From the IMG/VR virus record IMGVR_UViG_3300045988_087130, positions 25,785 to 89,784 of that record: a stretch of DNA of 64,000 nt, one strand, 5' to 3'. Origin of the DNA: a virus. The position numbers and the translations under genes were made by a program. The notes under the pieces are model-generated. The model was not told the origin of the DNA. It saw nothing but the letters and a program-made list of their open reading frames with translations, and searched no databases. Every line of letters starts with the position of its first letter. Positions within the stretch are counted from its first letter, which is position 1. Shown here one piece after another: positions 10,610 through 62,360 of this stretch.

Positions 10610-10648
10610 TGAAAGACCCTAACGCTTTTCGATGGGAGGAGTAAGAAA

Positions 10649-10945: not shown

Positions 10946-10975
10946 TATATTATATAGGTTACTTGGCAGCGAGTC

Positions 10976-11000: not shown

Positions 11001-11060
11001 AACTCCCACTGGTATGCTGCCAATAACCTTTTTTGTTTAACAATATAAATTAGTTTTAAA

Positions 11061-12041: not shown

Positions 12042-12046
12042 ACTGT
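12021..12046 (+). promoter_or_regulatory. GGTGAGGCACAC..AAACTGTATTG element overlapping the antirepressor stop
   Basis: Exact motif; encodes C-terminal GEAHDK. Confidence 0.4.
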
Positions 12047-12104
12047 ATTGTTAATAGGTGGGGATGTGGTTTAGGCTACACCTCCACAACAAAAATAAAT
12101 ATAG

Positions 12105-12395
12105 ATGGCAGATATTAATAAATTATCAAGAAGAGGCGGCAAAATATACGTATTAATCACTTCATACCAACATGGATTGGGTGAAGCAGTGGAGGTTGAC
12201 GCAGAAGTCTTCTCTACCATAGATAAGGCAAGAAAAGCGATAAGACACAAAGGGATGAACACTTTGGAGAATTACAAGCGAGTTTTGAATTGCGATGATT
12301 ATCTATGCAATATCTCAGATTCTTTCTTCCATATCTCAGACAGCGAAGGAGAAACGTGGGATAATTTCGACATCGTAGAACAAGAATTAAAATAA
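12105..12395 (+). CDS. hypothetical protein
   Basis: 96-aa ORF. Confidence 0.4.
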   Translation: MADINKLSRRGGKIYVLITSYQHGLGEAVEVDAEVFSTIDKARKAIRHKGMNTLENYKRVLNCDDYLCNISDSFFHISDSEGETWDNFDIVEQELK

Positions 12396-12402
12396 TAAAG
12401 CT

Positions 12403-29382: not shown

Positions 29383-29791
29383 CGATTTCAACGCTGCCGA
29401 TGAATTTGTCGTTGAGGCAATGATGCAAGATGGCAAATTCAAGGTTATCGGCAAGGTTATTATTGATAATAATCTTCTGAATGATGATGATTTGGAAACT
29501 ATCTGGGATTATGCCAACTGGGAGACGAACGGCTATGAAAAGATGGTTGTCTCTAACGGAGTGTACAAAGGCTTGAAAGCATTTAGCGATGGGCGTTTGT
29601 TCTATGTAATTACTGATGATGAGGTTGGAGTGGTAAATGACAATATCATGGTACGTAAGCATTATGATGTCAACAATGGCTATTATATTAAGTCATCAAG
29701 GTTGCACAAGGAACAATCCAGGGACTTATGGTGCTTTGGTAGCCGTGAGACTATTGAGAACGAATATAGGTCAAATAAAAAACTGTTTTAA
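29363..29791 (+). CDS. hypothetical protein
   Basis: 142-aa ORF. Confidence 0.4.
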   Translation: MRPIEISDFNAADEFVVEAMMQDGKFKVIGKVIIDNNLLNDDDLETIWDYANWETNGYEKMVVSNGVYKGLKAFSDGRLFYVITDDEVGVVNDNIMVRKHYDVNNGYYIKSSRLHKEQSRDLWCFGSRETIENEYRSNKKLF

Positions 29792-31026
29792 ATTGAGTAG
29801 TATGATTTCATACAAGTACAAGTTATACCGGACGAAGAAGACGAGGCATTTGGATAAGATGCTCCGAGAGGCTTGCTATGTTTGGAATCATGCGCTTGCC
29901 TTGCAGAAGAGATACTATAAGTTGTATCACAAGTATATTCCTAGATTTATGATGCATCATCATTTTGCTAAACGATATAAGCCAATTTTGCTTAACAGCC
30001 ATACCGTTAGGGAAATCTTGGATAGATTAGATGTAGCTTACAAGCGTTTCTTTAAGCATGATGCAAAGCGTCCACCTAAGTTCAAAAAGATGGTTGAATT
30101 TAGTTCGTTCGTTTTCAAAGATAATGGTTATTCCCTTAGTGGAAACGAGTTTGTGATAAACAAGATAAAGAAGTCCTTCAAGTTCTCTCTGAGCCGTCCT
30201 TACGATGGCAAGGTTAAGAGGGTATCAGTCAAGCGCAACAAGCTGGGCGAGTACTTCATTATCCTTTGCTTGGACAAGCAAGCCGAGCCTTACGGAAAGT
30301 CACACGATGGTGCATCCGTGGGCATCGACTTTGGATTGAAGAAGTACATGACTTTGAGCGATGGTCGTGAGATTGATAATCCTCAGTTCCTTAAAGCTGA
30401 CTTGCAGGAGCTTAGGCGCAGGTCTCGCAACCTCTCGAAGTGCAAGAAGGGCAGCAACAACCGCAAGCGCAAGAAGATGGAATTGGAGCGATTGTATCGG
30501 GATATTGTGAACAAACGTTCCGATTTCCAGTGGAAGCTGGCTCACGAACTTTGCAAGCGTTACGACTTGATTTGCTTGGAGGACTTGAACTTGGAGGTAA
30601 TGGCAAAGCGTTGGGGACGCAAGATGTCTGACTTGGCACATAGCGATTTCGTTGTGAAGTTGGAGCACGTAGCGAAGAAGTATGGCGTTAAGGTTCATAA
30701 GATAGACCGCTTCTTCCCATCGAGCCGCCTTTGCACTTGTGGTTATAAGAACGATAAGCTGTCATTGGGTGATAGGATTTGGACTTGCCCTAGTTGTGGT
30801 GCTGTTCATCCTAGAGACCTCTTCGCAGCTGAGAATATACTTCGGCAGGGCATTGCCGAATTGGGGAGTGGTAGTAAGTCACCCAAGCACTCGCAAGGGC
30901 GCAGCCACGTTAACAACCCAACAATCCCTTGTAAATAGCAATGGAGTGTGCCATGTATGCAATAGACTTAGCTCAACGCAAGCAACTTGAAGGATAAAAA
31001 CAAAATACAAAATTAAGAATAAGCAT
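29780..31026 (+). mobile_element. putative IS1341-like element (TnpB only); ends not defined
   Basis: Single tnpB with an 88-bp 3' flank before the next gene; compositional island. Confidence 0.4.
29802..30938 (+). CDS. tnpB: IS200/IS605-family TnpB (OrfB, IS1341-type), no TnpA partner
   Basis: N-terminal YKYKLYRTKKTRHLDKMLREACYVWNHALAL (OrfB_IS605 N-terminus) and C-terminal zinc ribbon CTCGYKNDKLSLGDRIWTCPSCGAVHPRD; GC-richer than its surroundings. Confidence 0.8.
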   Translation: MISYKYKLYRTKKTRHLDKMLREACYVWNHALALQKRYYKLYHKYIPRFMMHHHFAKRYKPILLNSHTVREILDRLDVAYKRFFKHDAKRPPKFKKMVEFSSFVFKDNGYSLSGNEFVINKIKKSFKFSLSRPYDGKVKRVSVKRNKLGEYFIILCLDKQAEPYGKSHDGASVGIDFGLKKYMTLSDGREIDNPQFLKADLQELRRRSRNLSKCKKGSNNRKRKKMELERLYRDIVNKRSDFQWKLAHELCKRYDLICLEDLNLEVMAKRWGRKMSDLAHSDFVVKLEHVAKKYGVKVHKIDRFFPSSRLCTCGYKNDKLSLGDRIWTCPSCGAVHPRDLFAAENILRQGIAELGSGSKSPKHSQGRSHVNNPTIPCK

Positions 31027-34888: not shown

Positions 34889-34961
34889 GCTGCATTAGAC
34901 AAGTGGTTAAGTCGCCAGTTTTTCACGCTGGTATTCAAAGGTTCGAATCCTTTATGCAGTA
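34889..34961 (+). tRNA. tRNA-Glu (anticodon TTC)
   Basis: Hand-folded: acceptor GCTGCAT/ATGCAGT, anticodon stem CCAGT/GCTGG with loop TTTTCAC, T-arm AAAGG-TTCGAAT-CCTTT. Confidence 0.6.
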
Positions 34962-34967
34962 CAAATT

Positions 34968-35038
34968 TGCCCTATGGTGTAATGGCAACACTACAGGTTT
35001 TGGTTCTGTCATTAGTGGTTCGAATCCGCTTGGGGCAA
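34968..35038 (+). tRNA. tRNA-Gln (anticodon TTG)
   Basis: Acceptor TGCCCTA/TGGGGCA, anticodon stem ACAGG/TCTGT with loop TTTTGGT, T-loop TTCGAAT. Confidence 0.55.
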
Positions 35039-35069
35039 CAAGGTGATATTTGATATGTATTCCACAAAT

Positions 35070-35154
35070 GGTGCAATATTCAAGCGGCTAAAGAAGACTG
35101 ACTGTAAATCAGTTCCCATTGCGGGTTCGGTGAGTTCGAATCTCTCTTGCACCA
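35070..35154 (+). tRNA. tRNA-Tyr (anticodon GTA), type II with long variable arm
   Basis: Acceptor GGTGCAA/TTGCACC; D-loop AGCGGCTAAA; anticodon loop CTGTAAA; variable arm CCC-ATTGC-GGG; T-loop TTCGAAT; 85 nt. Confidence 0.65.
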
Positions 35155-35178
35155 CAAGAGTAACTTTGTCAGATTACG

Positions 35179-35250
35179 GGGAATGTAGCTCAGAAGTAGA
35201 GCACTTGGTTCGTAACCAAGGGGGCATTGGTGCAACTCCAATCATTCCTT
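35179..35250 (+). tRNA. tRNA-Thr (anticodon CGT)
   Basis: Acceptor GGGAATG/CATTCCT, D-arm GCTC-AGAAGTA-GAGC, anticodon stem CTTGG/CCAAG with loop TTCGTAA; unusual T-loop TGCAACT. Confidence 0.5.
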
Positions 35251-35253
35251 TAC

Positions 35254-35325
35254 GCTTTCGTAGCTCAGTGGCAGAGCATAGGATTTTTAATCCTAGGGTC
35301 GAAGGTTCGAATCCTTCCGTTGGCA
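35254..35325 (+). tRNA. tRNA-Lys (anticodon TTT)
   Basis: D-arm TAGCTCAGTGGCAGAGC, anticodon stem TAGGA/TCCTA with loop TTTTTAA, T-arm GAAGG-TTCGAAT-CCTTC; acceptor stem has two internal mismatches, so ends are uncertain. Confidence 0.5.
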
Positions 35326-35498
35326 CAATGATACACAAGAAGAGAGCCGTGATGTTTGTTCTGTTGGAATCTCGGACATCTGTCAACGGATAACGTAGGA
35401 AGCAGATGGGGCGAATAAAGTTGTGAATAAGCTTATGAACTAGGGAAGCAAGCGGAATGGCCTCTTTTTTGTGCTTCATTTGATGGTTTAACGAAAAA

Positions 35499-44265: not shown

Positions 44266-45295
44266 ATGTCTTGCTTCTGTTGCGGAGGTGGCAGTTCCTT
44301 TGGTTATAAGTTAGCTGGCTACGATGTTGTAGCCTGTAACGAGATAGACCCAAAGGTTATGAAGATGTACTTGAAGAATCACGATGTCAAGTATTCTTTC
44401 AATTGTGATATTCGTGAGCTGATTGCCAATATCAATATAGGGGGGGCATATTATGAAAGAAGAGTTGCATAATCTGGATATATTGGATGCTAGTTTCCCA
44501 TGTTCGGTATTCAGTATTGCAGGTGACCGCCAAAAGGCTTGGGGAAAGGAAAAAGTATTCCGAGAAGGTCAGAAAGCACAAAGGCTTGACGATTTGGCTT
44601 TTTACTCAATCGCCCTCGCTCAAGAACTACAACCAAAGGTAGTGGTTTTTGAGAATGTCCAAGGTTTGTTGCAAGGTGAAGCTATCGAGTACGTGAAAGA
44701 GATTTACAGGCAGATGGATAATGCCGGATATATCTTGCAGCATTGGTTGCTTAATGCACGTAATATGGGTGTTCCTCAGAATCGACCTAGGGTGTTCTTT
44801 CTAGGATTACGCAAAGACCTTTGCAAGCCGTTTATGGTTCAGAAGGATTTGTTCGAGCGAGTGCCTAAGATAGATATGGACTTCAACGAGAAAGAAATTG
44901 TCTTGGATGAGTTTTCGGACTATAGTGGAAGACAGATTCCAAAAGGAGTGATGAAGTATTGGGAGCATAGAAACGAGAAAGACAATTCTATCGGTGATAT
45001 TGTCAAACGGATGGATAATCGTCTTTCTATGTTCAATAATATGTTTCTTAAAAAGGATAAAGTATGCAATACTATATCAGCAATGGAAGATAGGCTTGTG
45101 TATTTTGATAATCCAAGTTATATTTCAGCGCATGATACGATTTTAGCATCAACATTCCCGATGGATTATGACTTTAATGGCATGAAACCTTGGTTTGCTT
45201 GCGGAATGTGTGTTCCTCCAGTTATGATGGCTAATGTAGCTACGAGAATCTGGGATTGTTGGTTGTCAAAGATTAAAAAGGAGGAATGCGCATGA
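44266..45295 (+). CDS. DNA (cytosine-5)-methyltransferase interrupted by a frameshift at a G7 tract
   Basis: Motif I FCCGGGSS in ORF 44188-44472; motifs IV FPCSVFSIAG, VI ENVQGLL, VIII QNRPRVFF in ORF 44453-45295; the frames join if the G run 44440-44446 has 6 or 9 G. Confidence 0.7.
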
Positions 45296-46029
45296 TAACA
45301 GCAAGTATGAATTCGGGTGAGATGCGTAGGGTACGAAACTTAGATGAAGCTAGAATCTATGAGTTTCAGATGCGAAAAGCTAATGAGCTTAAACGTGAAA
45401 TGAGAAAGCAGAGTGTAAGACAGATAACCAAGACATACGAATTGGTTACACGGAATGCCGATTATTTCATCGTTGTAGGTGTAAAGCATGGAGGTGTCTT
45501 TGTCTCAGGTGTATTCATTTATCTGAAGGAAACTAACGAGTATATTCCTATGAGCAGAAATGAGGGGTATAGCGAGGATTGTTTTGCTATGAGCGTTCAT
45601 TTTCTGAAGAGATATGCAGAAAGGTATTTGAAAAAGGATTTGCCGATAGCAAAGATATTACAAAAGATATATACATCGTTTACAGGTGCGGTTCAGCTTT
45701 ATAGTGACGACAAGACAAAAAGGGTGGTGTTTGCTATTCCGGAAGGGCTTATACTCACAGAATACGAGCAAGAAAAGCGTATCATCCACTACAAAACCTT
45801 TGTAAGCATGGATATGCTAAAGAAGACACAAATGCAAAGTTACGAGAAGATTAGTGCATTTCTAATGGAATCATGTCAGCAAATAGCTATGGCAAGAGAA
45901 GCAGGAAATGACGAAAAGCTGGGCGTTGTGTACAGAAGGTTTTATGATGATATTGATTTGATAGATACAAAGGAGGCGCAAGCCATATATTCAAGTTTCT
46001 TCGAAAAAGGAGGTAACAATGAAAGATAA
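45286..46029 (+). CDS. hypothetical protein overlapping the C5-MTase stop (candidate restriction partner, unproven)
   Basis: 247-aa ORF starting 10 nt inside the MTase gene end; no recognisable motif. Confidence 0.4.
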   Translation: MRMITASMNSGEMRRVRNLDEARIYEFQMRKANELKREMRKQSVRQITKTYELVTRNADYFIVVGVKHGGVFVSGVFIYLKETNEYIPMSRNEGYSEDCFAMSVHFLKRYAERYLKKDLPIAKILQKIYTSFTGAVQLYSDDKTKRVVFAIPEGLILTEYEQEKRIIHYKTFVSMDMLKKTQMQSYEKISAFLMESCQQIAMAREAGNDEKLGVVYRRFYDDIDLIDTKEAQAIYSSFFEKGGNNER

Positions 46030-46522
46030 ATGTATAACAAGGTTTCTAGGTGATATTAAGCCTATAGAGAATTACGAAAGGTATTATGTTAGCAAGCTGG
46101 GACATGTCTTTACTATTGGGAGAACGTCTCAATTAAAGGAAATCGCACCTTGCAAGACACCAAAAGGTTATTTGAAGGTATGGCTTTACAAGAACGGAAA
46201 GCGAAAGATGTTCTATGTTCATCGTTTGGTAGCGCAGGCATTCTTGGAGAATCCAGATGCGTTGCCGATGGTGAATCATAAGGATTTCGACAAGACGAAT
46301 AACGATGTAGATAACTTGGAGTATTGTACCGCAAGATACAATGTGATTTATTCTGCTATAGCAAAGAAAACCTCTTCCGAATACTTGGGTGTGACTTGGA
46401 ATAAGAGTGTAAGAAAATGGCAAGCTCAGTACCAGGTAGGTAAGAAGAAAACTTATATCGGATGCTTTGGTACGCAAGAAGAGGCTCACGAAGCTTATGT
46501 TAACGCTATAAAAGAGATTTGA
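46019..46522 (+). CDS. HNH homing endonuclease (HNH_3) with AP2 DNA-binding domain
   Basis: VNHKDFDKTNNDVDNLEY (H-x-D...NN...NLE HNH_3 core) and YLGVTWNKSVRKWQAQYQVGKKKTYIGCFGTQEEAHEAY (AP2). Confidence 0.65.
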   Translation: MKDKCITRFLGDIKPIENYERYYVSKLGHVFTIGRTSQLKEIAPCKTPKGYLKVWLYKNGKRKMFYVHRLVAQAFLENPDALPMVNHKDFDKTNNDVDNLEYCTARYNVIYSAIAKKTSSEYLGVTWNKSVRKWQAQYQVGKKKTYIGCFGTQEEAHEAYVNAIKEI

Positions 46523-46523
46523 C

Positions 46524-47237
46524 ATGCTTAAATTTGATAGAATATACAATTCCGACTGTATAGAAGGAATGAAGCAAATAGGGAGTGGGGATGTCAATTT
46601 AATTGTTACTGACCCACCATATTGTATCTCCTATAAGACCGGATGGAGAGCAGACGACCATCGTTTTTCGAAGGAAATACTCAATGACGATAATGAGCAA
46701 TTGATTATTGATTATATGAGCGAATGCTACCGGATATTGAAGGATGATAGTGCCGCTTACGTCTTTTGTTCAGCTAAGACCTTGGACTTTTTTATGCAAC
46801 AAGCTAGGAACGCAGGGTTTACCATTAAGAATGTGCTCATTTGGCGAAAGAACAACCATACGGCTGGAGATTTAGAGGCGCAATATGGGCAATGTTACGA
46901 GCCAATCCTGTACTTGAATAAAGGCAGACGAACCATAAACGGAAAGCGTTTGGAGGACGTATGGGACTTTGATAGAGTTCCATCTGATAAATTGGTACAT
47001 CAGAATGAGAAACCAATTCCCTTGCTTATGCAATGCATCTTGAAATCATCGGACGAAGGAGATTTGGTATTTGATGGTTTTATGGGTTCAGCAAGTACTG
47101 CTCTGGCTTGTATGCGTACAAACAGGAATTTCCTTGGCTTTGAGTTAGACGGGGAATATTTCAAGGTAGCACAAAAAAGAATCAAAGAAGAAATGTTTAA
47201 TCAAAAAGATATGTTTGGATATGCTGGAGATAGATAA
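46524..47237 (+). CDS. beta-class N6-adenine/N4-cytosine DNA methyltransferase
   Basis: N-terminal catalytic TDPPY, C-terminal SAM site FDGFMGSASTALAC. Confidence 0.75.
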   Translation: MLKFDRIYNSDCIEGMKQIGSGDVNLIVTDPPYCISYKTGWRADDHRFSKEILNDDNEQLIIDYMSECYRILKDDSAAYVFCSAKTLDFFMQQARNAGFTIKNVLIWRKNNHTAGDLEAQYGQCYEPILYLNKGRRTINGKRLEDVWDFDRVPSDKLVHQNEKPIPLLMQCILKSSDEGDLVFDGFMGSASTALACMRTNRNFLGFELDGEYFKVAQKRIKEEMFNQKDMFGYAGDR

Positions 47238-47967
47238 GATTTATCAAGTTGATTGTCTGGATGGTATGAGCAAGATTGATGACAAGTCCGTCTCGCTTAT
47301 ACTCACAGACCCTCCATATGAAATTTCAAGGGATTCCAATTATGCAAAGTCCGCTCCTACTGGTAAAGATACTGATAGATTCCGCATATCTATCGACTTT
47401 GGAGACTGGGATAAACAGGAAGCATTTGATATAGGCTCTATGATAAAAGAATCCTACAGGTGCTTGAAAGATGGTGGATATATAGTTTGTTTCTATGATT
47501 TGTGGAAGATTGGGGTCGTAAAGGATGCGATGATTAATGTCGGATTTAAACAAATTAGATTTATAGAATGGATAAAAACAAATCCTGTTCCAATAAATAG
47601 TAAGACAAACTATCTCACAAACGCAAGAGAGGTCGCTGTGTGTGGGGTGAAAGGTAAAAATCCTATCTTTAAAAGCGAATATGACAATGGAGTATATAGC
47701 TTTCCAATCTGTCGTGATAAGGGGAGATTTCATCCTACCCAGAAGCCTGTTAGTCTTTTCAGAAGCATTATAAACAAGCATTCCTGCAAAGGAGATATTG
47801 TACTAGATTGCTGTATAGGTAGTGGAACTACGGCTATTGCGTGTATTCAAGAAAATCGTAATTTTATTGGTTTTGAAACTAATAGAGAGTTTTACGACAA
47901 AGCAAACGAGAGAATAGAAAATGAATTAATGATAAAGCAAGATAGTTTATTTAGTAATGAAAGTTAG
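47215..47967 (+). CDS. beta-class N6-adenine/N4-cytosine DNA methyltransferase
   Basis: TDPPY motif; C-terminal LDCCIGSGTTAIAC. Confidence 0.75.
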   Translation: MDMLEIDKIYQVDCLDGMSKIDDKSVSLILTDPPYEISRDSNYAKSAPTGKDTDRFRISIDFGDWDKQEAFDIGSMIKESYRCLKDGGYIVCFYDLWKIGVVKDAMINVGFKQIRFIEWIKTNPVPINSKTNYLTNAREVAVCGVKGKNPIFKSEYDNGVYSFPICRDKGRFHPTQKPVSLFRSIINKHSCKGDIVLDCCIGSGTTAIACIQENRNFIGFETNREFYDKANERIENELMIKQDSLFSNES

Positions 47968-48692
47968 TGGGTGATATGATGGAGCTAAATAGAATTTATC
48001 AAGGTGATTGCCGAAAGCTTCTAAAGCAGCTAGACGATGAATGTATAGACCTAGTATGCTCTGATGTTGCTTATCCGGTACAAGCTAGAGGTGGGCGCAG
48101 TAGTATGAGTGGATATTGGACGGATTCTCAAACTAGAAAAGGTAAGATATTCAAGAGTAATGACATAGATATTTCGGAGTATATCAACGAACTATATCGA
48201 GTACTAAAGGATAAGACTCATTGCTATCTTATGTGTAACGACTATAATCTGATGCACTTTCTAAATGAGATAGGACGGAGTGAGTTTCACTTCACAAAGT
48301 GTTTAATATGGGATAAATGCACTAAGGTGTGTGGAACGTATTATATGAACCAAAAAGAGTATATCATTATGCTTCGTAAGGGAGGTGGAAAGCCAATTAA
48401 TGAGTTTGGCACATCTGACATTCTGAGTGTTCCTATTCCAACCAACAAACGCAGGGATAAAGAAGGATTGATCAATCAGACCGAAAAACCAGTTAAGTTG
48501 ATGGAGATTCTAATCAGAAACTCAACAAATGTAGGTGATGTTGTTCTTGACCCATTTATGGGGAGTGGCACAACAGCAAGGGCTTGCGTTAATCTTGAAA
48601 GAAAGTATATAGGCTTCGAAATAGACCAGCGGCAAGTAGATTTTTCCAATAACGAATTAAAGAGCATGAGTAGGCAATTAAGTCTGTTTTAA
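47967..48692 (+). CDS. beta-class DNA methyltransferase homolog with atypical catalytic motif SDVAY
   Basis: Aligns with its neighbours (CSDVAY in place of TDPPY); C-terminal LDPFMGSGTTARAC is intact. Confidence 0.6.
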   Translation: MGDMMELNRIYQGDCRKLLKQLDDECIDLVCSDVAYPVQARGGRSSMSGYWTDSQTRKGKIFKSNDIDISEYINELYRVLKDKTHCYLMCNDYNLMHFLNEIGRSEFHFTKCLIWDKCTKVCGTYYMNQKEYIIMLRKGGGKPINEFGTSDILSVPIPTNKRRDKEGLINQTEKPVKLMEILIRNSTNVGDVVLDPFMGSGTTARACVNLERKYIGFEIDQRQVDFSNNELKSMSRQLSLF

Positions 48693-48696
48693 AACA

Positions 48697-48921
48697 ATGG
48701 ATATGAGTATGGTTATTCAATGTAACACAGTTGTAAGAAATGGGAATAAAGAGATAACGGATGCTCTTATAAAAGCCATTAAGGATGAAGCCTCGAAGCG
48801 TGGGTTGGTACGTGATGAATTGGTTGAATATTGCAACCAATTGTTAAGGAAAGGCGAAATCAAGGCTTGTATTAAGAATTTGTTTTATAATTTCAAACGT
48901 TATTTTTGGAGGTATTATTGA
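48697..48921 (+). CDS. hypothetical protein
   Basis: 74-aa ORF. Confidence 0.35.
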   Translation: MDMSMVIQCNTVVRNGNKEITDALIKAIKDEASKRGLVRDELVEYCNQLLRKGEIKACIKNLFYNFKRYFWRYY

Positions 48922-48922
48922 T

Positions 48923-49552
48923 ATGAGAAGAAGAAAGTTGAACAAGTCTCCAGTGTTAGGATTCTGCGGATTTGTTATCGGTTACGAGTGCAAGGAAAAG
49001 GGAATAAAGCTGATGGAGTGCGATAAGGCGCAAGCAGATGCAATCATAGTTCCTCATCACTTTTCACACAAGGTAACGAAGAATAGTTGCTTGAATCTTT
49101 TGGTATTGTATAAGGATAAGATAAGGGGTGCAATGCAAATAGGGTATGGAATCCGACCGCACATCAAGACTGAAAAGGGCGAAGTGTTGGATTACCATCA
49201 AGTGAGGGAATTTGACAGAATGTGGTTGTCTGATGATATGCCAAAGTTTAGTGAGACGATTTGCCTATCTCTTTTGCATAAGTATATTAGGGCAACACAT
49301 AAGGAAATCAAGTACCTTATATCTTATGCCGATACGTCCATAGGTAACAAGGGAACTATATATAAAGCAGCAAACTATGAGCATATTGATACCATTAAGG
49401 CAGATTTCTATGTGTTACCAAGTGGTGAGCGTGTGCATCCGGTTACTATGTGGCATCGGCACAAGACAAGAGCATGGGAGGTTCTAACGGAACTATACCC
49501 AGGAATAAAAAAGGCAGAAGGGTTTCAACTTAAATTTCTAAAGAAGTTATGA
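48923..49552 (+). CDS. hypothetical protein embedded in the methyltransferase array
   Basis: 209 aa; no recognised motif; sits between MTase paralogs. Confidence 0.4.
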   Translation: MRRRKLNKSPVLGFCGFVIGYECKEKGIKLMECDKAQADAIIVPHHFSHKVTKNSCLNLLVLYKDKIRGAMQIGYGIRPHIKTEKGEVLDYHQVREFDRMWLSDDMPKFSETICLSLLHKYIRATHKEIKYLISYADTSIGNKGTIYKAANYEHIDTIKADFYVLPSGERVHPVTMWHRHKTRAWEVLTELYPGIKKAEGFQLKFLKKL

Positions 49553-49764
49553 AGAAAAGAAATAAATATATTCCTTGTCATTTGCATCCAGATTCTGAGC
49601 ATTGGGTTAGAAAGGGGGACTCTTGGAAAGCAAAGATTGCTTACGAATCCGAGGAGGATGCTTGGGAGTTTCTGAACCAGCGATCCGAACTGAAGGCGAT
49701 TGGGTATGTGGCGTATCAATGTAAGACTTGCCATTTCTGGCACGTGGGGAGAAAACTATCGTGA
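49549..49764 (+). CDS. small zinc-ribbon-like protein
   Basis: CHLH...H and a C-terminal CKTCHFWH Cys/His pair. Confidence 0.35.
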   Translation: MKKRNKYIPCHLHPDSEHWVRKGDSWKAKIAYESEEDAWEFLNQRSELKAIGYVAYQCKTCHFWHVGRKLS

Positions 49765-49798
49765 AATGGTTTAACTGATAGAAATAGATTTATAGAAG

Positions 49799-50569
49799 AT
49801 GGAATTAAATAAGATATATAATGAGGATTGTCTAGTGGGAATGAAACAGATTCCGGACGCAAGTGTGGATTGTATTATCTGCGATTTGCCGTATGGTGCT
49901 CTCAATAAAAAGAGTGAGGGCGGTGGCTGGGATAGCATTATTCCGTTTGAACCATTGTGGAAGGAATATCTGCGCATAACCAAACCAAATGCAGCCATTA
50001 TTCTTTTCTGTCAAGGTATGTTTACCGCACAGCTTATGATGTCGCAGCCGAAACTCTGGAAATATAATCTTATTTGGAGCAAGCAGCGGGTAACAGGCTT
50101 TTTGAATGCCAACAAGATGCCTCTGCGCTCACATGAGGATATTGCAGTATTCTATCGGAAACAACCTATCTACAATCCTCAGATGGTAAAATGTGCGCCA
50201 CATCAAAGGAATCATCGAAGGGGCGATGGCTCTCATAGTTTGAAGCGAGGTTGTTATGGCGATCATAAAGAAGTGCCTACTATCATATCAGATGAGAAAT
50301 TCCCAAAGAGCATTATCTGCTTCGACAAAGAACATTCTGCCAACACCTTCCACCCCACTCAAAAGCCAGTCGCTCTTATTCAGTACCTCATCCGTACCTA
50401 CTCCAACGAGGGCGACACCATCTTAGACAACTGCATGGGCAGCGGTACTACCGCTATCGCAGCCATCCGTGAAAAGCGAAATTTCATCGGGTTCGAGTTA
50501 AATAAAGAATATTACGACAAGGCTTGTAAGCGCATTAAGTTAGAAATTATGCAACCCAGCCTATTCTAA
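49799..50569 (+). CDS. beta-class N6-adenine/N4-cytosine DNA methyltransferase
   Basis: CDLPY catalytic motif; C-terminal LDNCMGSGTTAIAA. Confidence 0.75.
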   Translation: MELNKIYNEDCLVGMKQIPDASVDCIICDLPYGALNKKSEGGGWDSIIPFEPLWKEYLRITKPNAAIILFCQGMFTAQLMMSQPKLWKYNLIWSKQRVTGFLNANKMPLRSHEDIAVFYRKQPIYNPQMVKCAPHQRNHRRGDGSHSLKRGCYGDHKEVPTIISDEKFPKSIICFDKEHSANTFHPTQKPVALIQYLIRTYSNEGDTILDNCMGSGTTAIAAIREKRNFIGFELNKEYYDKACKRIKLEIMQPSLF

Positions 50570-52776: not shown

Positions 52777-53037
52777 ATGAAGGTTATGGTTACAGCAAAT
52801 TTTGAAATTGGAAATAAAGAGTTTGAGGTACGTTTCATACGAGAATCAGGTTATCCTCCAACAAAGAATGAACGTGGTTCTTCATTGGTTGAGTATGATG
52901 TAACGACATACAAAGATAATCAGCCAATGATGAAGAAGTTCAATCAAAAGAAACGTGTTTATTTCGACCTTGAAGGTAATGTTTACAAAAGTAAACAGAG
53001 TAATAAGGTATGGTTTAATCTTTATAAAGCAAGTTAA
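52777..53037 (+). CDS. hypothetical protein
   Basis: 86-aa ORF. Confidence 0.4.
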   Translation: MKVMVTANFEIGNKEFEVRFIRESGYPPTKNERGSSLVEYDVTTYKDNQPMMKKFNQKKRVYFDLEGNVYKSKQSNKVWFNLYKAS

Positions 53038-54047
53038 TGGTTATGGAAGAAAAAATTAATATAGCGGAAATCCTTAAGGATAAGCCGCAAGGAACTAAGT
53101 TATATGACTTGTTATATAATATAGATGTAGAGTTAGATACCATCAGTACTACTGATACAGAAACAGTAGCTTGGTGTACAAATGAGACTGATAATAATAC
53201 TACTTGCCATCGTGGTTATTCCGAATTTGGTACTGTAAGAGGAGGACTTAATGGCTTACAGATTCTCCTTCCTTCTAAGGAGATGCGTGACTGGGGCAAG
53301 TTCGCCTGGAAGAAAGGCGATGTATTGGTTTGCACAGATGGCAAAGCAGAGGTTATCTTTGAGAGATTTGATGATGACAATTACACTTCATTTGTCGGTA
53401 AGCACTATCTTGAGAGTTATGGTAAAGATGGCGATTTGCTAGATTATGAGCAGGAACATCTCTGTGATACGGCTAATTACACCAAAGAATCCGATGAGAC
53501 TGTTCAATGCTACATCAACACTATTGAGGAACGTTTGGGTGGCAAACTCAATCGTAAGACCCTTGAAGTAGAGAAGGCTCAGCCAGAGTTCAAGGATGGG
53601 GATATAGCTTTTGCTGATTTTGGTAATACACAAGCTGTATTTATAGTATCAGGCAAAACTGACTTATCAGAAGGTTATAACTCGTTTATTGCTTTAGATT
53701 TAAGAGGCTTAACTTTGGATATGGGATGTATGAGTTTCTTTAAGAAAGACCTTTGTAAACTTCGCCTTGCCACAGATGAAGAGAAGCAGCAACTCTTTGA
53801 TGCCCTCACCGAAGAAGGCAAGGCTTGGGATGCCGAGAAGAAAGAAGTTGTTGGCTTGAAGCCAAAGGTTGAGCTGAAACCATTTGACAAAGTGTTAGTC
53901 AAAGATAACCCTTATGGAAGTTGGGAGCCAGCTCTCTTTTGGAAGAAAGTAGATGCAATAGACCTTCATCCCTATATGGTTATAGGAGGTAAAAGGTATA
54001 GATTTTGCGAACCTTACGAAGGCAACGAGCACTTTTTGAACGACTAA
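53037..54047 (+). CDS. hypothetical protein with internal repeats
   Basis: 336 aa; recurring G-D-hydrophobic blocks (KKGDVLVCTDGKAEVIF / FKDGDIAFADFGNTQAVF / FDKVLVKDNPYGSW). Confidence 0.45.
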   Translation: MVMEEKINIAEILKDKPQGTKLYDLLYNIDVELDTISTTDTETVAWCTNETDNNTTCHRGYSEFGTVRGGLNGLQILLPSKEMRDWGKFAWKKGDVLVCTDGKAEVIFERFDDDNYTSFVGKHYLESYGKDGDLLDYEQEHLCDTANYTKESDETVQCYINTIEERLGGKLNRKTLEVEKAQPEFKDGDIAFADFGNTQAVFIVSGKTDLSEGYNSFIALDLRGLTLDMGCMSFFKKDLCKLRLATDEEKQQLFDALTEEGKAWDAEKKEVVGLKPKVELKPFDKVLVKDNPYGSWEPALFWKKVDAIDLHPYMVIGGKRYRFCEPYEGNEHFLND

Positions 54048-55173: not shown

Positions 55174-55419
55174 ATGAATAAAAAAGTAAGTGAATTTGTG
55201 CGTAAGTATGTTGAGGAGCACTTGGATAAGAGTGACCCAAAACAAGAGTTTGAGGTGTTTGTAGTATGGCAGTGCTACATTCTTGGTAATGCGAAGTGGT
55301 TGTTATCAACAACGCTTCCAGATGGTATGTACTACGAGGTGACATACAACAAAGTCAAGAATGAGTTCTATCTCGATGCTTACAAGAAATTTGAGAATCG
55401 TTGCATTCCAAACAAGTAA
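55174..55419 (+). CDS. hypothetical protein
   Basis: 81-aa ORF. Confidence 0.4.
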   Translation: MNKKVSEFVRKYVEEHLDKSDPKQEFEVFVVWQCYILGNAKWLLSTTLPDGMYYEVTYNKVKNEFYLDAYKKFENRCIPNK

Positions 55420-55520
55420 CTAACCACCCTCTCCTGTAAAAGGGAGAGGGTGAAAAGAAGATAAAAGCGTTCTTTGACTTAGTGGATTACCGCAAATAAT
55501 AATTAAAATATAGAAATATA

Positions 55521-55552
55521 TTTGGCTATATGAAAATATTGTTTTACCTTTG
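55521..55552 (+). promoter_or_regulatory. sigma-A-type promoter (TTTG-N20-TAccTTTG)
   Basis: TTTG 55521, TAccTTTG 55545; the track ORF start 55550 lies inside the promoter, so ATG 55598 is taken as the start. Confidence 0.45.
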
Positions 55553-55597
55553 CACAATAAAAAATGGCATATATGGAATAATAAAAACAATCAACTT

Positions 55598-56128
55598 ATG
55601 AAGACGGACGCATTAGCTGTAGCCAATTACTTTATAGAATTGGCACAGAAAGAAGATAAGCCTATACATTTGTTAGGCTTGGTTAAACGTGTGTATATAG
55701 CGCACGGTTTTTCTCTTGCTTTGAATCATAGGGGATTGATAAATCCTAGATTTGACAAGGTTGAAGCATGGAAGTATGGTCCTGTTATACCATCTGTGTA
55801 TCATACATTCAAGCAACAACAACATACAGCAAATGAAATCAAGGATTTTGCTACAAATATGGTTTGGGACGAGAATAATTTCAAGCCAGATTGGGTTACT
55901 CCAAAGCTAGAAAATACAGAAGACAAAAAGGTTGTAGAGCTTGTGTGGAAAAGATACAAGAGTTTTAGTGATTCTGAATTAGTATCTCTAACACATAAAA
56001 AGGGTACTCCATGGTTTCTATGCTACATTGAGAATGAAAATGTGCCAATTCCAGACGAATTGACTACAGTTTATTACAAGCAATTAATTGAAAATATAGT
56101 TAATGCGCATGAAAGAAAATCTGTATGA
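55598..56128 (+). CDS. Panacea-domain (DUF4065/SocA-like) protein, putative antitoxin
   Basis: LGLVKRVYIAHGFSLALNHRGLINPRFDKVEAWKYGPVIPSVYHTFK fits the DUF4065 core (K..KLlYy..gw.La..g.pLF.e.feAW..GPV.p.vY). Confidence 0.6.
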   Translation: MKTDALAVANYFIELAQKEDKPIHLLGLVKRVYIAHGFSLALNHRGLINPRFDKVEAWKYGPVIPSVYHTFKQQQHTANEIKDFATNMVWDENNFKPDWVTPKLENTEDKKVVELVWKRYKSFSDSELVSLTHKKGTPWFLCYIENENVPIPDELTTVYYKQLIENIVNAHERKSV

Positions 56129-56480
56129 TATTCTGTCTGCTGATAACAAAAGCACAGAAAAGCTAGAGGAACTAAACACATCCATTGGCGGCAAACCTTT
56201 GGAAGAAACAATTGCATACCAACGTGCTGTAATAGACAAAATGCGTGAAGAAATAGAAGGTCTAAAGCAGGACAGAAAACAACGTAAGATATTTGGATAT
56301 TGCATATTTGGTTTTATGTGTGCTTATATGGCAGCTGCAATAGTTATTGTATTTTTCTGTGGCTTTGGTTTAATATACCTTTCAGATAAGGTTATATTAA
56401 CATTGATTGGCAGTACTCTTGTCGAAGTTATAGGAGTTTTCGCATTTGTAGCTAGATACCTATTCCATAAGAAAGATTAA
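56103..56480 (+). CDS. small two-helix membrane protein, putative toxin partner
   Basis: Starts 26 nt inside the upstream gene (ATG 56103 or 56109); C-terminal IFGYCIFGFMCAYMAAAIVIVFF and VILTLIGSTLVEVIGVFAFVA hydrophobic helices. Confidence 0.45.
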   Translation: MRMKENLYDILSADNKSTEKLEELNTSIGGKPLEETIAYQRAVIDKMREEIEGLKQDRKQRKIFGYCIFGFMCAYMAAAIVIVFFCGFGLIYLSDKVILTLIGSTLVEVIGVFAFVARYLFHKKD

Positions 56481-56505
56481 TAAAAATAATTTAGTATATT
56501 ACGTA

Positions 56506-56538
56506 AGCGGTAATCCACAAGTTGGGTTGCCGCTTTTT
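56506..56538 (+). terminator. rho-independent terminator
   Basis: AGCGGTAA-loop-TTGCCGCT followed by TTTTTGT. Confidence 0.5.
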
Positions 56539-56563
56539 GTATTCAACAATTTAAAAGAAGAAT

Positions 56564-56704
56564 ATGATAGACAGATTCAGACTTACATCACAGTTAGCCA
56601 TCCTTCAAGAGGTAGCTGCCGACTATCAAGGCAAGACAATAGATAATATCATTCAGCAGATGGAGGCAAGGTTGGATGAAGTAATTAAACAAGAAACAAT
56701 ATAG
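56564..56704 (+). CDS. hypothetical small protein (paralog of 31393-31524)
   Basis: 46-aa ORF found by hand. Confidence 0.3.
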   Translation: MIDRFRLTSQLAILQEVAADYQGKTIDNIIQQMEARLDEVIKQETI

Positions 56705-60239: not shown

Positions 60240-61442
60240 ATGAATGAGTTTACAAAGGTCTTTGCAAAGACAATAGAAGATGAAGCTATCAAGCAGATAG
60301 AAGTTCTATCCAATAGCGATGCTTACTCTGGTTGTGAAATAAGAATAATGCCAGATTGTCACGCAGGTAAAGGCTGTACTATTGGCACGGTGATAGAGCT
60401 GGACAAAAGAGTAGTTCCTAACACCGTAGGAGTAGATATAGGTTGCGGAATGAAAGTCGTTAGACTTGGTAAAGTTAATATTAATCTACAGAAATTTGAC
60501 GAAGCAGTCAATACGTTGATTCCGTCTGGTTTTAATATCAACGAAGAAGCTTCTGCATACATACATGGATTAGTTGACGGCAATATGTTTGGTAAATTTC
60601 GTTCTTGGGATAGTATTAATGGGATGGATATAGTATATCGTTCTGTTGGTTCTCTTGGCGGTGGCAATCACTTTATTGAGTTAGATGCAAATGAAGAAGG
60701 AGAGAAGTTTCTTGTGATACATACAGGAAGTAGAAACCTTGGTGTTAGGGTATGCAACTATTACCAAAAACTTGCCTACGAGTATTGTCGTAAGAAAATA
60801 GCAGATAAGTCTGAGGTTATTGCCAAGTTGAAAAGCGAAGGAAGAGAAAAGGAAATACAGAGTGCTATAAAGTTGTTAGGTACTAGAGATATTAGCAAGG
60901 AACTTTCTTACTTGGAGGGCGATTTGCTTGATGATTACTTAAATGATATGCGTATAGTTCAGAAGTATGCCGAGCATAATAGAAGAATTATAGCTAACAG
61001 ACTCGTCAATGCTCTAGGTGTGGATATTGACCCAAATTCAGACAAGCATTCTTTTACAACTATTCACAACTATATAGATACAGACAAGGGCATATTGCGA
61101 AAAGGAGCTATCAGTGCAAAGAAAGACGAGATTGTCATTATTCCTATGAATATGCGTGACGGTTCTCTTATCTGTAAAGGTAAAGGAAACAAGGAATGGT
61201 TATGCTCAGCCCCACATGGCGCAGGTAGATTAATGTCTCGTACACAGGCAAAGAAAGAGTTATCTATGGATTCTTACAAGAATGAAATGAATGGTATCTA
61301 TTCCACATCAGTTTGTGAAGAAACCATTGATGAAGCACCTATGGCATACAAACCAACCGAAGAGATTGTTGAGCTAATAAAACCTACGGTTGATGTGATA
61401 GATGTTATTAAACCAATTTACAACTTTAAAGCAAAATTATAA
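60240..61442 (+). CDS. rtcB: RtcB-family RNA ligase (short form)
   Basis: RtcB hallmarks MPDCHAGKG, VGVDIGCGM, GGGNHFIEL, HNYID, SAPHGAGR all present. Confidence 0.75.
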   Translation: MNEFTKVFAKTIEDEAIKQIEVLSNSDAYSGCEIRIMPDCHAGKGCTIGTVIELDKRVVPNTVGVDIGCGMKVVRLGKVNINLQKFDEAVNTLIPSGFNINEEASAYIHGLVDGNMFGKFRSWDSINGMDIVYRSVGSLGGGNHFIELDANEEGEKFLVIHTGSRNLGVRVCNYYQKLAYEYCRKKIADKSEVIAKLKSEGREKEIQSAIKLLGTRDISKELSYLEGDLLDDYLNDMRIVQKYAEHNRRIIANRLVNALGVDIDPNSDKHSFTTIHNYIDTDKGILRKGAISAKKDEIVIIPMNMRDGSLICKGKGNKEWLCSAPHGAGRLMSRTQAKKELSMDSYKNEMNGIYSTSVCEETIDEAPMAYKPTEEIVELIKPTVDVIDVIKPIYNFKAKL

Positions 61443-61645
61443 TGAGCAAGGAAACATTTGACTTCTCGGAGGCTCTGAGAAGAATGAAGGAAGGGAAGAA
61501 AGTGAGAAGGGTAATTTGGGAAGAATGTGGAGCTTATATCCATATTGTCTCTGAGACTATTGTGGCTGTATGCGATGGGCAATTCTTTCCTTGTGTTTTC
61601 AAAGATTCTGAGGATATACTTGCAACAGACTGGGAGGAGGTGTAA
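61442..61645 (+). CDS. hypothetical protein
   Basis: 67-aa ORF. Confidence 0.35.
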   Translation: MSKETFDFSEALRRMKEGKKVRRVIWEECGAYIHIVSETIVAVCDGQFFPCVFKDSEDILATDWEEV

Positions 61646-61647
61646 GG

Positions 61648-61713
61648 ATGAAAAAGAAAGTATTGACCCTCACCGTCAGCAAGCAGTGGTTCGACATGAT
61701 AGTAGTATTATGA
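61648..61713 (+). pseudogene. 21-codon 5' fragment duplicating the start of ASCH-like gene 62362
   Basis: MKKKVLTLTVSKQWFDMIVVL* against MKKILTLTVNKEWFSRILLGEK... at 62362; the HNH gene lies between them. Confidence 0.4.
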
Positions 61714-62360
61714 TAAAAGGAACAGAAGTAAATATCATACAAGGTGAAATTTGGAAGCCCATAAAAGGTTACGAAGGTTTATATTTTATTAGTAATCTTA
61801 GCAGGGTGAAAAGGATTACACCCAGAGGTAAGTTTAAGGAACGTTTATTGTACAAGAGACAAAATGATGCAGGTTATTGGTGCGTGTCACTTTGTAAGAA
61901 CGGAAAAGCAAAATGTAAGCGTGTACATAGATTGGTTGCTGAAGCGTTTATTCCTAATCCCGAGAATAAAACACAAGTTGGGCATAAAGACGAGACTCGG
62001 ACTAATGATTCTATCGAAAACTTAGAATGGGTAACTCCGAAAGAAAATTGCAATATGCCGTTACATAAACTGCGTATTGCTAACTCACAAACTGGGAAAA
62101 AGGATAGTTTGGAAACTAAACTAAAGAAACGCAATGCACAATTGGGAGAAAAAAGTCATTTATACGGCAAGAGGGGTAAAGATAATAGGTTTTCTAAACC
62201 CATATTGCAATACAATAAAAATGGCGAACTAATGAAGGAATACGAAAATGCTGAAGAAGCGTATAGAATTACGGGAATAGCAAGTTCGCATATCAGAGAA
62301 TGTTGCAACGGTTTAAGAAAAACCTCTGGTGGATATTGTTGGAAATTTAAAAATAAATAA
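61710..62360 (+). CDS. HNH homing endonuclease (NUMOD4 + HNH_3)
   Basis: IKGYEGLYFISNLSRVKRI (NUMOD4) and VGHKDETRTNDSIENLEWVTPKEN (HNH_3); the long track ORF 61527 begins upstream, but ATG 61710 follows the fragment stop. Confidence 0.65.
   Translation: MIKGTEVNIIQGEIWKPIKGYEGLYFISNLSRVKRITPRGKFKERLLYKRQNDAGYWCVSLCKNGKAKCKRVHRLVAEAFIPNPENKTQVGHKDETRTNDSIENLEWVTPKENCNMPLHKLRIANSQTGKKDSLETKLKKRNAQLGEKSHLYGKRGKDNRFSKPILQYNKNGELMKEYENAEEAYRITGIASSHIRECCNGLRKTSGGYCWKFKNK

Follow-up and report, generated by a model that had tools for sequence, protein, structure and literature searches.

What does a phage carry in a pair of small overlapping genes, one for a Panacea-domain protein and one for a small membrane protein? 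We analyzed such a pair in a 64,000-nucleotide stretch of DNA (herein the window; positions 25,785 through 89,784 of IMG/VR virus record IMGVR_UViG_3300045988_087130). A first-pass annotation, made from the letters alone, had proposed that the two genes form a self-contained PanA-PanT toxin-antitoxin (TA) or defense pair. With a probability of roughly three in four (about 0.77), we read the region as a PanAT type II TA module that a large tailed gut Bacteroidales phage carries as an accessory cassette (moron). In silico evidence speaks strongly for a PanA-PanT pair, with a putative Panacea antitoxin and a putative small membrane toxin; it comprises a Pfam match above threshold, absolute synteny of the two genes between unrelated flanks, their overlap, and homology to the validated PanT of Escherichia coli.

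The upstream gene, panA (positions 55598 through 56128, + strand), encodes a protein of 176 aa that is assigned as a standalone Panacea-domain antitoxin on the basis of PF13274. The ORF had been read as DUF4065/Panacea from a short peptide, which is present, and the Pfam search bears the reading out: SocA_Panacea (PF13274) matches the product with 66 bits (gathering score, 25.7; E = 7e-18; model positions 1 through 112 of 113). The domain occupies residues 28 through 139, and Pfam detects no other domain and no N-terminal accessory domain. The product also matches phrog_1281 (E = 7e-32) and has 705 homologs at E ≤ 1e-10; the length among the matches listed is 169 to 201 aa, mostly 171 to 177. 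AlphaFold2 models PanA with a pLDDT of 91.9, and neither a sequence search nor a Foldseek search with this model found a solved Panacea structure in the PDB. Against the NCBIfam SocA equivalog NF047745 the protein scores 85.4 bits, below the cutoff of 190. A DNA-binding domain is missing from PanA, so the autoregulation that usually marks type II systems is not apparent. A more upstream start codon for panA, TTG 55550, was rejected: it sits inside the −7 box of the promoter described below (55545 through 55552), so that the start would lie upstream of any transcription start from that promoter, and it is also disfavored by the lengths of the homologs.

The downstream gene, panT (56103 through 56480, + strand; alternative start ATG 56109), encodes a candidate membrane toxin of 125 aa. 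It begins 26 nt inside panA (20 nt from ATG 56109), whose TGA stop codon is 56126 through 56128; the overlapping ORF is thus found exactly where the first-pass annotation had placed it. The protein consists of a variable soluble N terminus, a conserved juxtamembrane helix (EEIEGLKQDRKQRK), and two transmembrane (TM) helices in a C-terminal hairpin. The two hydrophobic C-terminal helices had been noticed before, and both TM checks recover them as a two-helix hairpin: Kyte-Doolittle windows exceed 1.6 at residues ∼63 through 92 and 96 through 118, and AlphaFold2 predicts a helix at 33 through 88, a loop at 89 through 94, and a helix at 95 through 121. PanT has 25 close homologs within a wider family of 2925 cluster representatives. 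The exact protein occurs in 39 index blocks of the contig collection, and all its close relatives (≥47% identity) stem from metagenome data (Logan, ENA, JGI). A tblastn search of PanT against the GenBank phage and PLSDB plasmid collections, run with low-complexity filtering that may have hidden the TM segments, gave no match.

PanT has no match above threshold in Pfam, NCBIfam, or PADLOC, and PADLOC-DB v2 has no family at E ≤ 1 for either PanA or PanT. The one weak match is to Phage_holin_3_6 (PF07332; E = 0.005), and at 17.2 bits it falls below the gathering score of 28.4. It invites the reading that the pair is a lysis module, with PanT as a holin or pinholin-like lysis timer and the Panacea protein as an antiholin or regulator, and pore formation by the E. 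coli PanT homolog is indeed holin-like in effect. However, no lysis genes lie beside the pair in the window.

The link to a validated toxin was established by profile comparison. The PanT family profile aligns with the E. coli PanT family profile in hhalign with probabilities of 97.4% (E = 1e-11) and 98.4% (E = 5e-15), and an HMM built from 149 PanT representatives scores E. coli PanT at 37.5 bits, a value reached by 0 of 2000 segment-preserving shuffles. For 22 close PanT sequences compared with the single E. coli PanT, the evidence is moderate: hhalign gives 62.7% and the HMM 16.4 bits, which 2 of 2000 shuffles reach. It is the use of family profiles, built from hydrophobic proteins, that makes the link strong. 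The E. coli toxin allele used here is WP_000019186/187-like rather than WP_000019185.1 itself and adjoins WP_000287252.1; this PanA, encoded at the locus compared, is the validated antitoxin of cluster T3 in Table 1 of Kurata et al. 2022 (PMC8832971), with the antitoxin before the toxin and no N-terminal domain. This E. coli pair is also annotated as PanA/PanT in Escherichia phage PhiR47_1. E. coli PanT is toxic, depolarizes and permeabilizes the membrane, and is neutralized by PanA; T3 also includes Bacteroidales (Porphyromonas, Paraprevotella), with overlaps of −4 and −11 nt (PMC8832971). The window pair has the T3 architecture, namely a Panacea-only antitoxin, a two-TM toxin, and the same gene order (hydropathy, AlphaFold2, and Pfam); its kinship with T3 was judged by profile-profile homology, while T3 itself is defined by FlaGs/jackhmmer clustering. 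The earlier interpretation therefore holds in part: the PanA-PanT identity stands, but the suggestion of a possibly undescribed pairing of a Panacea domain with a two-TM protein is not supported, as this pairing is that of T3 and had been described (Kurata et al. 2022).

The two genes are framed by regulatory elements of their own. A predicted Bacteroidota sigma-A-type promoter (55521 through 55552, + strand) fits the consensus with a −33 TTTG, a 20-nt spacer, and a −7 TAccTTTG (55545 through 55552). Searched as TTTG-N18-22-TAnnTTTG, this motif is found 16 times in the window (shuffle expectation, 2.6), and 13 of the 16 are on the coding strand. An intrinsic terminator follows the pair (56505 through 56540, + strand; 13-bp stem with 6 G-C pairs, then a T run, at 56505 through 56535). 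Both elements had been proposed from the letters, together with the idea of an autonomous module, for which comparisons of phages with and without the pair provide independent support. Across contexts, the −7 box lies 26 to 81 nt upstream of panA in 11 of 12, and a near-identical terminator hairpin also stands 3′ of the pair in two further loci (L005 and L121), indicating that the terminator travels with the cassette. We define the mobile PanAT cassette as 55467 through 56538 (+ strand; about 1.07 kb), comprising promoter, panA, panT, and terminator; its neighbors in the window are small DUF6275 and DUF551 genes. The left insertion boundary, outside the cassette, is a G+C-rich hairpin (55422 through 55455, + strand) 3′ of the DUF6275 gene (55174 through 55419). 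This hairpin is present once in the window, is also conserved where related phages have no cassette, and matches other gut phage records as well. Base composition shows no sharp contrast between cassette and flanks.

Comparison with other phages shows that this unit moves. The segment 55467 through 56538 has 84 to 88% nucleotide homology to positions 3312 through 4433 of L121, which belongs to an unrelated phage; the promoter-to-terminator unit is kept there, including the bipartite promoter motif. Near a shared marker gene, none of 80 related phage loci has the cassette, and one collinear phage (L043) preserves a precise empty site, in which the hairpin is followed directly by sequence homologous to the window from 56694 onward. 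Recurrence in an unrelated phage and absence from related ones identify the pair as a mobile accessory cassette. The L121-type copies (L121 through L124) also speak for the lysis reading, as the cassette is directly flanked by a Phage_lysozyme gene on one side and, on the other, by a gene for a u-spanin-like protein with a lipobox and a C-terminal TM segment. Yet a lysozyme neighbor is seen only in these copies, the L121 cassette has its own promoter and terminator, and a candidate holin with one TM segment already precedes the lysozyme gene; the arrangement is consistent with insertion of a moron into a hotspot at the lysis cassette. Absence from all 80 related loci argues against a core lysis function, and the pair also occurs in chromosomes among housekeeping genes without phage context. 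Given the subthreshold PF07332 match, the nonlysis neighbors in the window, and these chromosomal copies, we rejected a holin/antiholin pair as the main explanation and consider it very improbable.

The association of the two genes is strict. A PanA ortholog (59 to 77% identity) lies directly upstream in 26 of 26 loci retrieved via PanT, which fall into at least nine mutually unrelated flanking contexts (blastn) from phages and Bacteroidales chromosomes. PanA also precedes PanT in the further contexts L030, L033, and L121 and in two distant family members (E ∼1e-22), so that the co-occurrence sought as a check on the first annotation was found in every relative examined. Taken together, these loci represent at least 10 unrelated contexts. 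The genes overlap by 1 to 35 nt in all 12 distinct contexts, with the antitoxin-first order kept throughout, and the divergences of PanA and PanT are correlated (r = 0.80, Mantel p ∼2e-4). The pair displays the pattern by which FlaGs recognizes TA pairs (two genes ≤100 nt apart, conserved in ≥2 genomes, with flanks that are not conserved), and the relation is reciprocal, in that the toxin relatives themselves adjoin PanA. The pairing of panA and panT is not due to chance.

The chromosomal copies bear on two further explanations. Some lie amid housekeeping genes (rpiB, GHMP kinase, LptE, SecG); in Bacteroidales chromosomes (L001 through L004), homologous PanAT pairs occupy islands with several Panacea genes, and the PanA there is 63% identical to the phage PanA. 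Such pairs would allow an antidefense role, in which the phage PanA mainly neutralizes related host-chromosomal PanTs that would otherwise abort infection and the phage PanT is kept only as an addiction element or cognate partner. Counterdefense functions abound in the phage (at least seven DNA methyltransferases, Mom, and RtcB), and a few mutations can widen PanA specificity, but PanAs are reported to be naturally specific for their cognate toxins (PMC8832971). The N-terminal part of PanT diverges fast (34% mean identity), which argues for pair-specific recognition, and every phage copy has kept a conserved panT without disruption, which a pure antidote would not need. We regard the antidefense role as improbable.

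In Alistipes, the chromosomal copy has an intact PanA and a PanT with one nonsense mutation at the invariant Q56, as would be expected of a decaying toxin gene. Inactivation of the toxin gene alone speaks against the second explanation, that the pair is not a TA system and PanT is a nontoxic membrane factor, for example one for superinfection exclusion or receptor masking, with the Panacea protein as a chaperone or sensor. About a third of the putative PanTs tested in E. coli (8 of 25) were not toxic, and some PanAs failed to neutralize their partner (PMC8832971); a sensor function of Panacea has been proposed by the NetFlax authors (PMC10440598), and Pfam, NCBIfam, and PADLOC detect no known toxin domain in PanT. 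Set against this are homology to a family with a toxic E. coli member in a cluster whose Vibrio cholerae member is toxic too (PMC8832971), the antitoxin-first overlapping order conserved in all contexts, and the selfish, patchy distribution of the pair. A nontoxic role thus appears unlikely, and a PanAT TA module remains our preferred reading.

For such a module, the following mechanism can be proposed. The Bacteroidota-type promoter would drive a bicistronic transcript with panA first, and panT would be translationally coupled to panA through the 20- to 26-nt overlap; by this coupling, the antitoxin would be made before the toxin and at least as abundantly. PanT is expected to form an N-in/C-in helical hairpin in the inner membrane, with its basic KQDRKQRK and HKKD flanks on the cytoplasmic side. 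By analogy with the E. coli homolog, free PanT may oligomerize and depolarize or permeabilize the membrane, and by analogy with the Bartonella PanT:PanA pair, PanA may neutralize it by binding the cytoplasmic N-terminal region and the helix before the first TM segment. Loss of PanA, its degradation, or a trigger-induced release would then free PanT and lead to cell arrest or death. The most likely benefit would be retention of the element, abortive infection-type exclusion of competing phages, or both. More speculatively, and with rather low probability, the cassette could be a trigger-sensing abortive-infection/superinfection-exclusion device of gut Bacteroidales phages, in which Panacea would serve as sensor and PanT as membrane effector; in the L121-type arrangement PanT may even modulate lysis timing. 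If true, such a co-option of PanT would amount to a functional connection between holins and the membrane toxins of TA systems.

Validated PanAT systems come mainly from Proteobacteria, Firmicutes, and Actinobacteria. The window cassette provides a clean, precisely delimited example from gut Bacteroidales phages, and its ∼1.07 kb move as a single unit, from promoter to terminator, among unrelated phages and chromosomes. Three natural comparisons are thereby available for asking what phage-borne membrane-toxin TAs do: isogenic-like phages with and without the cassette, the L121-type copy inside a lysis cassette, and the Alistipes chromosomal copy with a nonsense mutation in the toxin alone.

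Among known systems, the window pair shares the Pfam domain of its antitoxin with SocAB of Caulobacter, the founding SocA/Panacea system. SocA is a ClpXP adaptor for a DnaN-binding toxin, so that both mechanism and toxin differ from those of PanAT; the window partner is a two-TM protein rather than SocB-like, and the pair falls outside the type VI TA class of SocAB. As small membrane-depolarizing toxins on mobile elements, HokB and RmrT (RosmerTA of Gordonia phage Kita) are alike in kind; RmrTA, itself carried by a phage, confers defense against others (PMC10440598). Unlike in the window, the Hok antitoxin is an RNA and RmrA is an ImmA-protease/HTH protein, and no sequence relationship was detected.

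Closer likenesses are found among the PanATs. The PanT:PanA pair of Bartonella apis/choladocola (T12, NetFlax D11) has a membrane-depolarizing toxin with a charged N terminus followed by TM helices, and this toxin is neutralized directly, the standalone Panacea protein contacting its N-terminal region and a short helix before the TM segment (PMC10440598); T12 was compared with the window PanT by description only, and its authors call it only possibly homologous to T3. In Helicobacter sp. 13S00482-2 (T4), PanT has a coiled-coil-like N-terminal region and C-terminal TM helices, and the antitoxin gene again comes first, with an overlap of 11 nt; the toxin depolarizes the membrane without SYTOX permeabilization (PMC8832971). 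This toxin, likewise compared by description only, differs from the window PanT in its SCP-1-like coiled coil and belongs to the separate cluster T4.

The nearest validated relative is the PanA-PanT pair of E. coli STEC O31 (WP_000287252.1/WP_000019185.1), which shares with the window pair a standalone Panacea antitoxin, the antitoxin-first order, and a toxin with a charged soluble N terminus and a C-terminal two-TM hairpin. The two toxins have a TM2 motif in common (LLGTSTISIVGLVGFVxxxLF versus LIGSTLVEVIGVFAFVARYLF), the window PanA is 34% identical to the E. coli prophage PanA, and both systems are prophage- or phage-borne. They differ in that the window PanT has 125 aa versus 182 aa, with an N-terminal region unrelated in sequence; the window genes overlap by 26 nt, whereas the E. 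coli genes lie 22 nt apart; and the window lineage is that of gut Bacteroidales, with a Bacteroidota-type promoter. The window system is not a new kind of system but a new member of a TA class already described and tested in E. coli.

The antitoxin gene of the pair, panA (ORF1), runs on the plus strand from an ATG at 55598 to a TGA at 56126-56128 and encodes 176 residues. The Pfam model PF13274 (SocA_Panacea) is matched over its whole length (E = 7e-18; 66 bits, gathering score 25.7), bearing out the Panacea/DUF4065 call of the first-pass annotation; phrog_1281 is matched in PHROGs (E = 7e-32), and the NCBIfam SocA equivalog falls below its cutoff (85 bits vs. 190). PanA is a standalone Panacea domain with 705 homologs at E ≤ 1e-10, and AlphaFold2 predicts seven helices plus β-strands (pLDDT 91.9). 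The candidate toxin gene, panT (ORF2; 56103-56480, same strand), encodes 125 residues and starts 26 nt within panA, or 20 nt if the second in-frame ATG at 56109 is used; the coordinates, overlap, and length read earlier all hold against the sequence and ORF list. PanT has no above-threshold family in Pfam, PHROGs, NCBIfam, or PADLOC. The two C-terminal hydrophobic helices first read from the sequence are recovered both by hydropathy (residues about 63 through 92 and 96 through 118) and by an AlphaFold2 model built on a 22-sequence alignment, in which a long helix (33 through 88) is joined through a loop of six residues to another helix (95 through 121), the two forming a hairpin (pLDDT 75 to 86). 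Basic residues flank this hairpin (KQDRKQRK ahead, HKKD behind), so that by the positive-inside rule PanT would adopt an N-in/C-in topology with its soluble 60 residues in the cytoplasm.

The pair has its own expression signals, as originally proposed. The window holds 16 matches to the consensus TTTG-N18-22-TAnnTTTG (2.6 ± 1.5 in shuffles), 13 of them on the strand bearing all genes, and one match (55521-55552, plus strand) precedes panA; a terminator with a 13-bp stem and a T run lies at 56505-56535 (plus strand). Across 12 distinct genomic contexts the panA-panT overlap ranges from 1 to 35 nt, and a TAnnTTTG box lies 26 to 81 nt 5′ of panA in 11. The pair is trailed by a strong hairpin-plus-T terminator in the window and also, among the fetched comparison loci representing these contexts, in L005, L007, L009, L028, and L030; the same is true of L121. 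Given the antitoxin-first order and obligatory overlap, translation of panT would be coupled to that of panA.

The surrounding genome is that of a tailed phage whose long ORFs all share one strand. It encodes a tape measure protein (2042 residues), a major head protein, RtcB, Thy1, several DNA methyltransferases, Mom, an HNH-NUMOD endonuclease, five tRNAs, and the temperate-type regulators Ant (an anti-repressor), Rha, and an HTH/P63C protein. A Bacteroidales host is indicated by enrichment of the Bacteroidota promoter motif and by the assemblies in which the pair turns up, those of Prevotella, Duncaniella, and Alistipes. Small genes adjoin the cassette: DUF6275 on the 5′ side, and a 46-aa ORF, a 101-aa ORF, and DUF551 on the 3′ side. 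Elsewhere, DNA-modification genes are unusually dense, with five N6/N4-type or related methyltransferase genes within 44453-50569 (44453-45295, 46524-47237, 47215-47967, 47967-48692, and 49799-50569), a Mom-family gene (48923-49552), a D12/Dam-type methyltransferase gene (5309-6034), and a truncated C5 methylase gene at the window start (73-804); the set is likely an anti-restriction arsenal. The RtcB RNA ligase gene adjoins the HNH-NUMOD homing-endonuclease gene, and the tRNAs (Glu, Gln, Tyr, Thr, Lys) form a cluster (coordinates for the three jointly, 60240-61442, 34889-35326 and 61527-62360); as a set these could counter host defenses that cleave tRNA. An IS605 OrfB/TnpB gene with a Cas12f-like TNB domain lies at 29637-30938.

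Close homologs of PanT number 25 (47 to 98% identity), all metagenome-derived (Logan, ENA, JGI). The 26 loci fetched through PanT homologs comprise chromosome-like contigs (carrying LptE, SecG, and a sigma-54 activator), elements (Thy1, MazG, PcfJ/K), 17 IMG/VR viral contigs, and two GTDB metagenome-assembled genomes. A PanA ortholog (59 to 77% identity) lies directly 5′ of PanT in all 26, and by DNA comparison their flanking sequences form at least 9 mutually unrelated sets; the synteny anticipated for the pair is thus present. Three PanA homologs at about 60% identity were also sampled from the 705; in L030 and L033 an overlapping gene of 121 to 128 codons 3′ of PanA scores 157 to 161 bits against the PanT HMM. 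An exhaustive profile search extends the PanT family to 2925 representatives of 50%-identity clusters at E ≤ 1e-3 (888 at E ≤ 1e-10), mostly of 105 to 150 residues, and a PF13274 gene lies directly 5′ in each of two remote members taken as samples (E about 1e-22). Pairwise identities of PanA and PanT are correlated (r = 0.80; Mantel p about 2e-4). Judged by these loci, the pairing is not due to chance.

Two further matches stand apart. P0147, a protein of 4561 residues, hits the PanT profile 41 times along its length, each time at about the last 29 positions (TM2); presumably it is no relative but a hydrophobic protein full of repeats, or an artifact of assembly or gene calling. The Pseudomonas phage vB_Pae_CF183a (MK510977.1; L037) encodes a PanA homolog at 1501-1935 (36% identity, E = 5e-17) that is unannotated on its own strand, a 198-nt opposite-strand "hypothetical protein" being annotated there instead; the same apparently applies to about a dozen sibling records. 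The 129-aa ORF 3′ of this homolog has no match to the PanT-family HMMs.

We compared 80 IMG/VR loci, each with a homolog (44 to 64% identity) of the 336-aa protein encoded at 53037-54047; many share other small neighbor genes with the window. In none of the 80 does PanA or PanT occur within 7 kb of that homolog. In the collinear related phage L043, a conserved hairpin (window 55415-55456) joins directly to the homolog of window position 56694, and the window therefore holds an extra 1.24 kb (55457-56693). Conversely, an unrelated phage (L121-L124; PanT 95% identical) has nucleotide homology to the window over 55467-56538 only, a stretch that opens just 5′ of the bipartite promoter and closes with the terminator hairpin, both of them conserved. 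In the contig collection, 39 index blocks list the exact window PanT protein (24 contigs read), some of its contigs being 82 to 125 kb long. On these comparisons 55467-56538 is a discrete mobile cassette, in keeping with the autonomous module first proposed. The hairpin itself (G+C-rich, 55422-55455, CACCCTCTCC-loop-GGAGAGGGTG) is conserved, at 83 to 96% identity, both in related phages and in other phages of the gut (MT835597, L043, L094, L095, L112), with gene content differing at its junction; besides being a terminator, it may be a hotspot for module boundaries or recombination. The 46-aa ORF (56564-56704) directly 3′ of the cassette terminator is absent from L043 and lies outside the unit shared with L121; in L125-L128 it again comes after the cassette, the two being separated by an additional 137 bp in L127 and L128, and a sequence elsewhere in L066 matches it at 60%.

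In L121-L124 the cassette sits between a Phage_lysozyme gene, preceded by a gene for a 141-aa single-TM coiled-coil protein, and a gene for a u-spanin-like 161-aa protein with an N-terminal lipobox and C-terminal TM segment (L121 2349-4931), so that its terminator would lie within the lysis cassette. This position beside a lysozyme gene, and a sub-threshold holin-family match, would suit a holin-like PanT restrained by PanA as antiholin; that reading is contradicted by the pair's self-contained promoter and terminator, its location in the window apart from all identified lysis genes, its absence from the 80 related phage loci, and its presence in non-phage chromosomal contexts. The cassette's own promoter and accessory distribution and the phage's temperate-type regulators are compatible with a moron whose expression does not depend on the lytic program.

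The third of the sampled PanA homologs belongs to a chromosomal copy. Between the housekeeping genes rpiB and GHMP kinase in Alistipes (L027-L029, including GCA_949427125.1), the panT homolog (frame from 3015) carries a single CAA/CAG-to-TAA change at family-invariant Q56, the Gln of LKQDR (codon 54 of the frame); the rest of the frame and PanA are intact, and the toxin alone looks to have been inactivated recently. Such a toxin-only nonsense allele, and a toxin gene otherwise conserved, intact, and co-inherited, fit less well with phage PanA serving as an antidote to a host PanT, and also less well with PanT as a non-toxic membrane factor. Another chromosomal copy (L001-L004, about 6900-12400, minus strand) lies in what appears to be a TA/defense island with two more Panacea genes: one, for a 142-aa PanA, overlaps by 1 nt the next gene, whose 151-aa product is not a membrane protein, and the other encodes a 328-aa Panacea protein; L004 also has a Gp49/HTH (HigBA-like) pair.

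We favor, at roughly three chances in four, a PanAT toxin-antitoxin module that works by direct neutralization of a membrane toxin. For a Bartonella membrane PanT, a standalone Panacea domain neutralizes directly, contacting the toxin's unstructured N terminus and the short helix before the TM region, and Y56A and H120E substitutions abolish neutralization (NetFlax, PMC10440598). The window PanA is likewise standalone, and its PanT has an equivalent N-terminal region and conserved juxtamembrane helix; by homology, PanA would neutralize PanT directly at these cytoplasmic elements. Mean identity is 34% in the N-terminal part of PanT vs. 64% in the C-terminal 78 residues; this fast divergence, with the correlated divergence of the partners, is consistent with the N terminus as the site of pair-specific recognition. 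The module may act as an addiction element, may exclude other phages in the manner of abortive infection, or may do neither.

The study that defined PanAT systems (Kurata et al. 2022, PMC8832971) validated nine pairs, of which three have a membrane toxin. Among these three, the E. coli STEC O31 pair (WP_000287252.1, PanA; WP_000019185.1, PanT), whose toxin depolarizes and permeabilizes the membrane, belongs to cluster T3, with A|T gene order and a PanA lacking an N-terminal domain (Dataset S1, PMC8832971), as in the window pair. By tblastn against phage records, the window PanA matches E. coli prophages at 34 to 35% identity, including PhiR47_1, annotated PanA/PanT. PhiR47_1-type loci in 79 complete E. 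coli genomes pair WP_000287252.1 with WP_000019186.1 or WP_000019187.1, the alleles compared here; as the loci are 97.7 to 100% identical in DNA and the accession numbers consecutive, both toxins presumably represent alleles almost identical to the validated one. An HMM built from 149 sequences that represent the window PanT family gives this E. coli PanT 37.5 bits, a score reached by 0 of 2000 shuffles keeping composition per segment (maximum 21.5). Profile-profile hhalign against the E. coli PanT family (63 homologs plus the PhiR47_1 sequence) gives 97.4% (E = 1e-11) with 22 close window-PanT sequences and 98.4% (E = 5e-15) with a 150-sequence alignment, spanning the juxtamembrane and both TM helices; the single-sequence comparison is weaker (62.7%). 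On this evidence we place the window PanT in the superfamily of the validated T3 toxin; each protein of the pair is homologous to its counterpart in a known, tested PanAT system. The PanA-PanT identification of the first-pass annotation accordingly stands on the PF13274 match, synteny, and T3 homology; its suggestion of an undescribed pairing does not, since T3 is known from Proteobacteria, Deinococcus, and Bacteroidetes, the last including Porphyromonas catoniae (-11 nt), Paraprevotella xylaniphila (-4 nt), and many Flavobacteriia (-8 to -26 nt) (PMC8832971). By homology, the window pair is a new Bacteroidales-phage addition to the T3-like PanAT class, to which it brings local detail: exact cassette boundaries, movement between phages and chromosomes, insertion inside the lysis cassette of one phage, and a toxin-only pseudogene.
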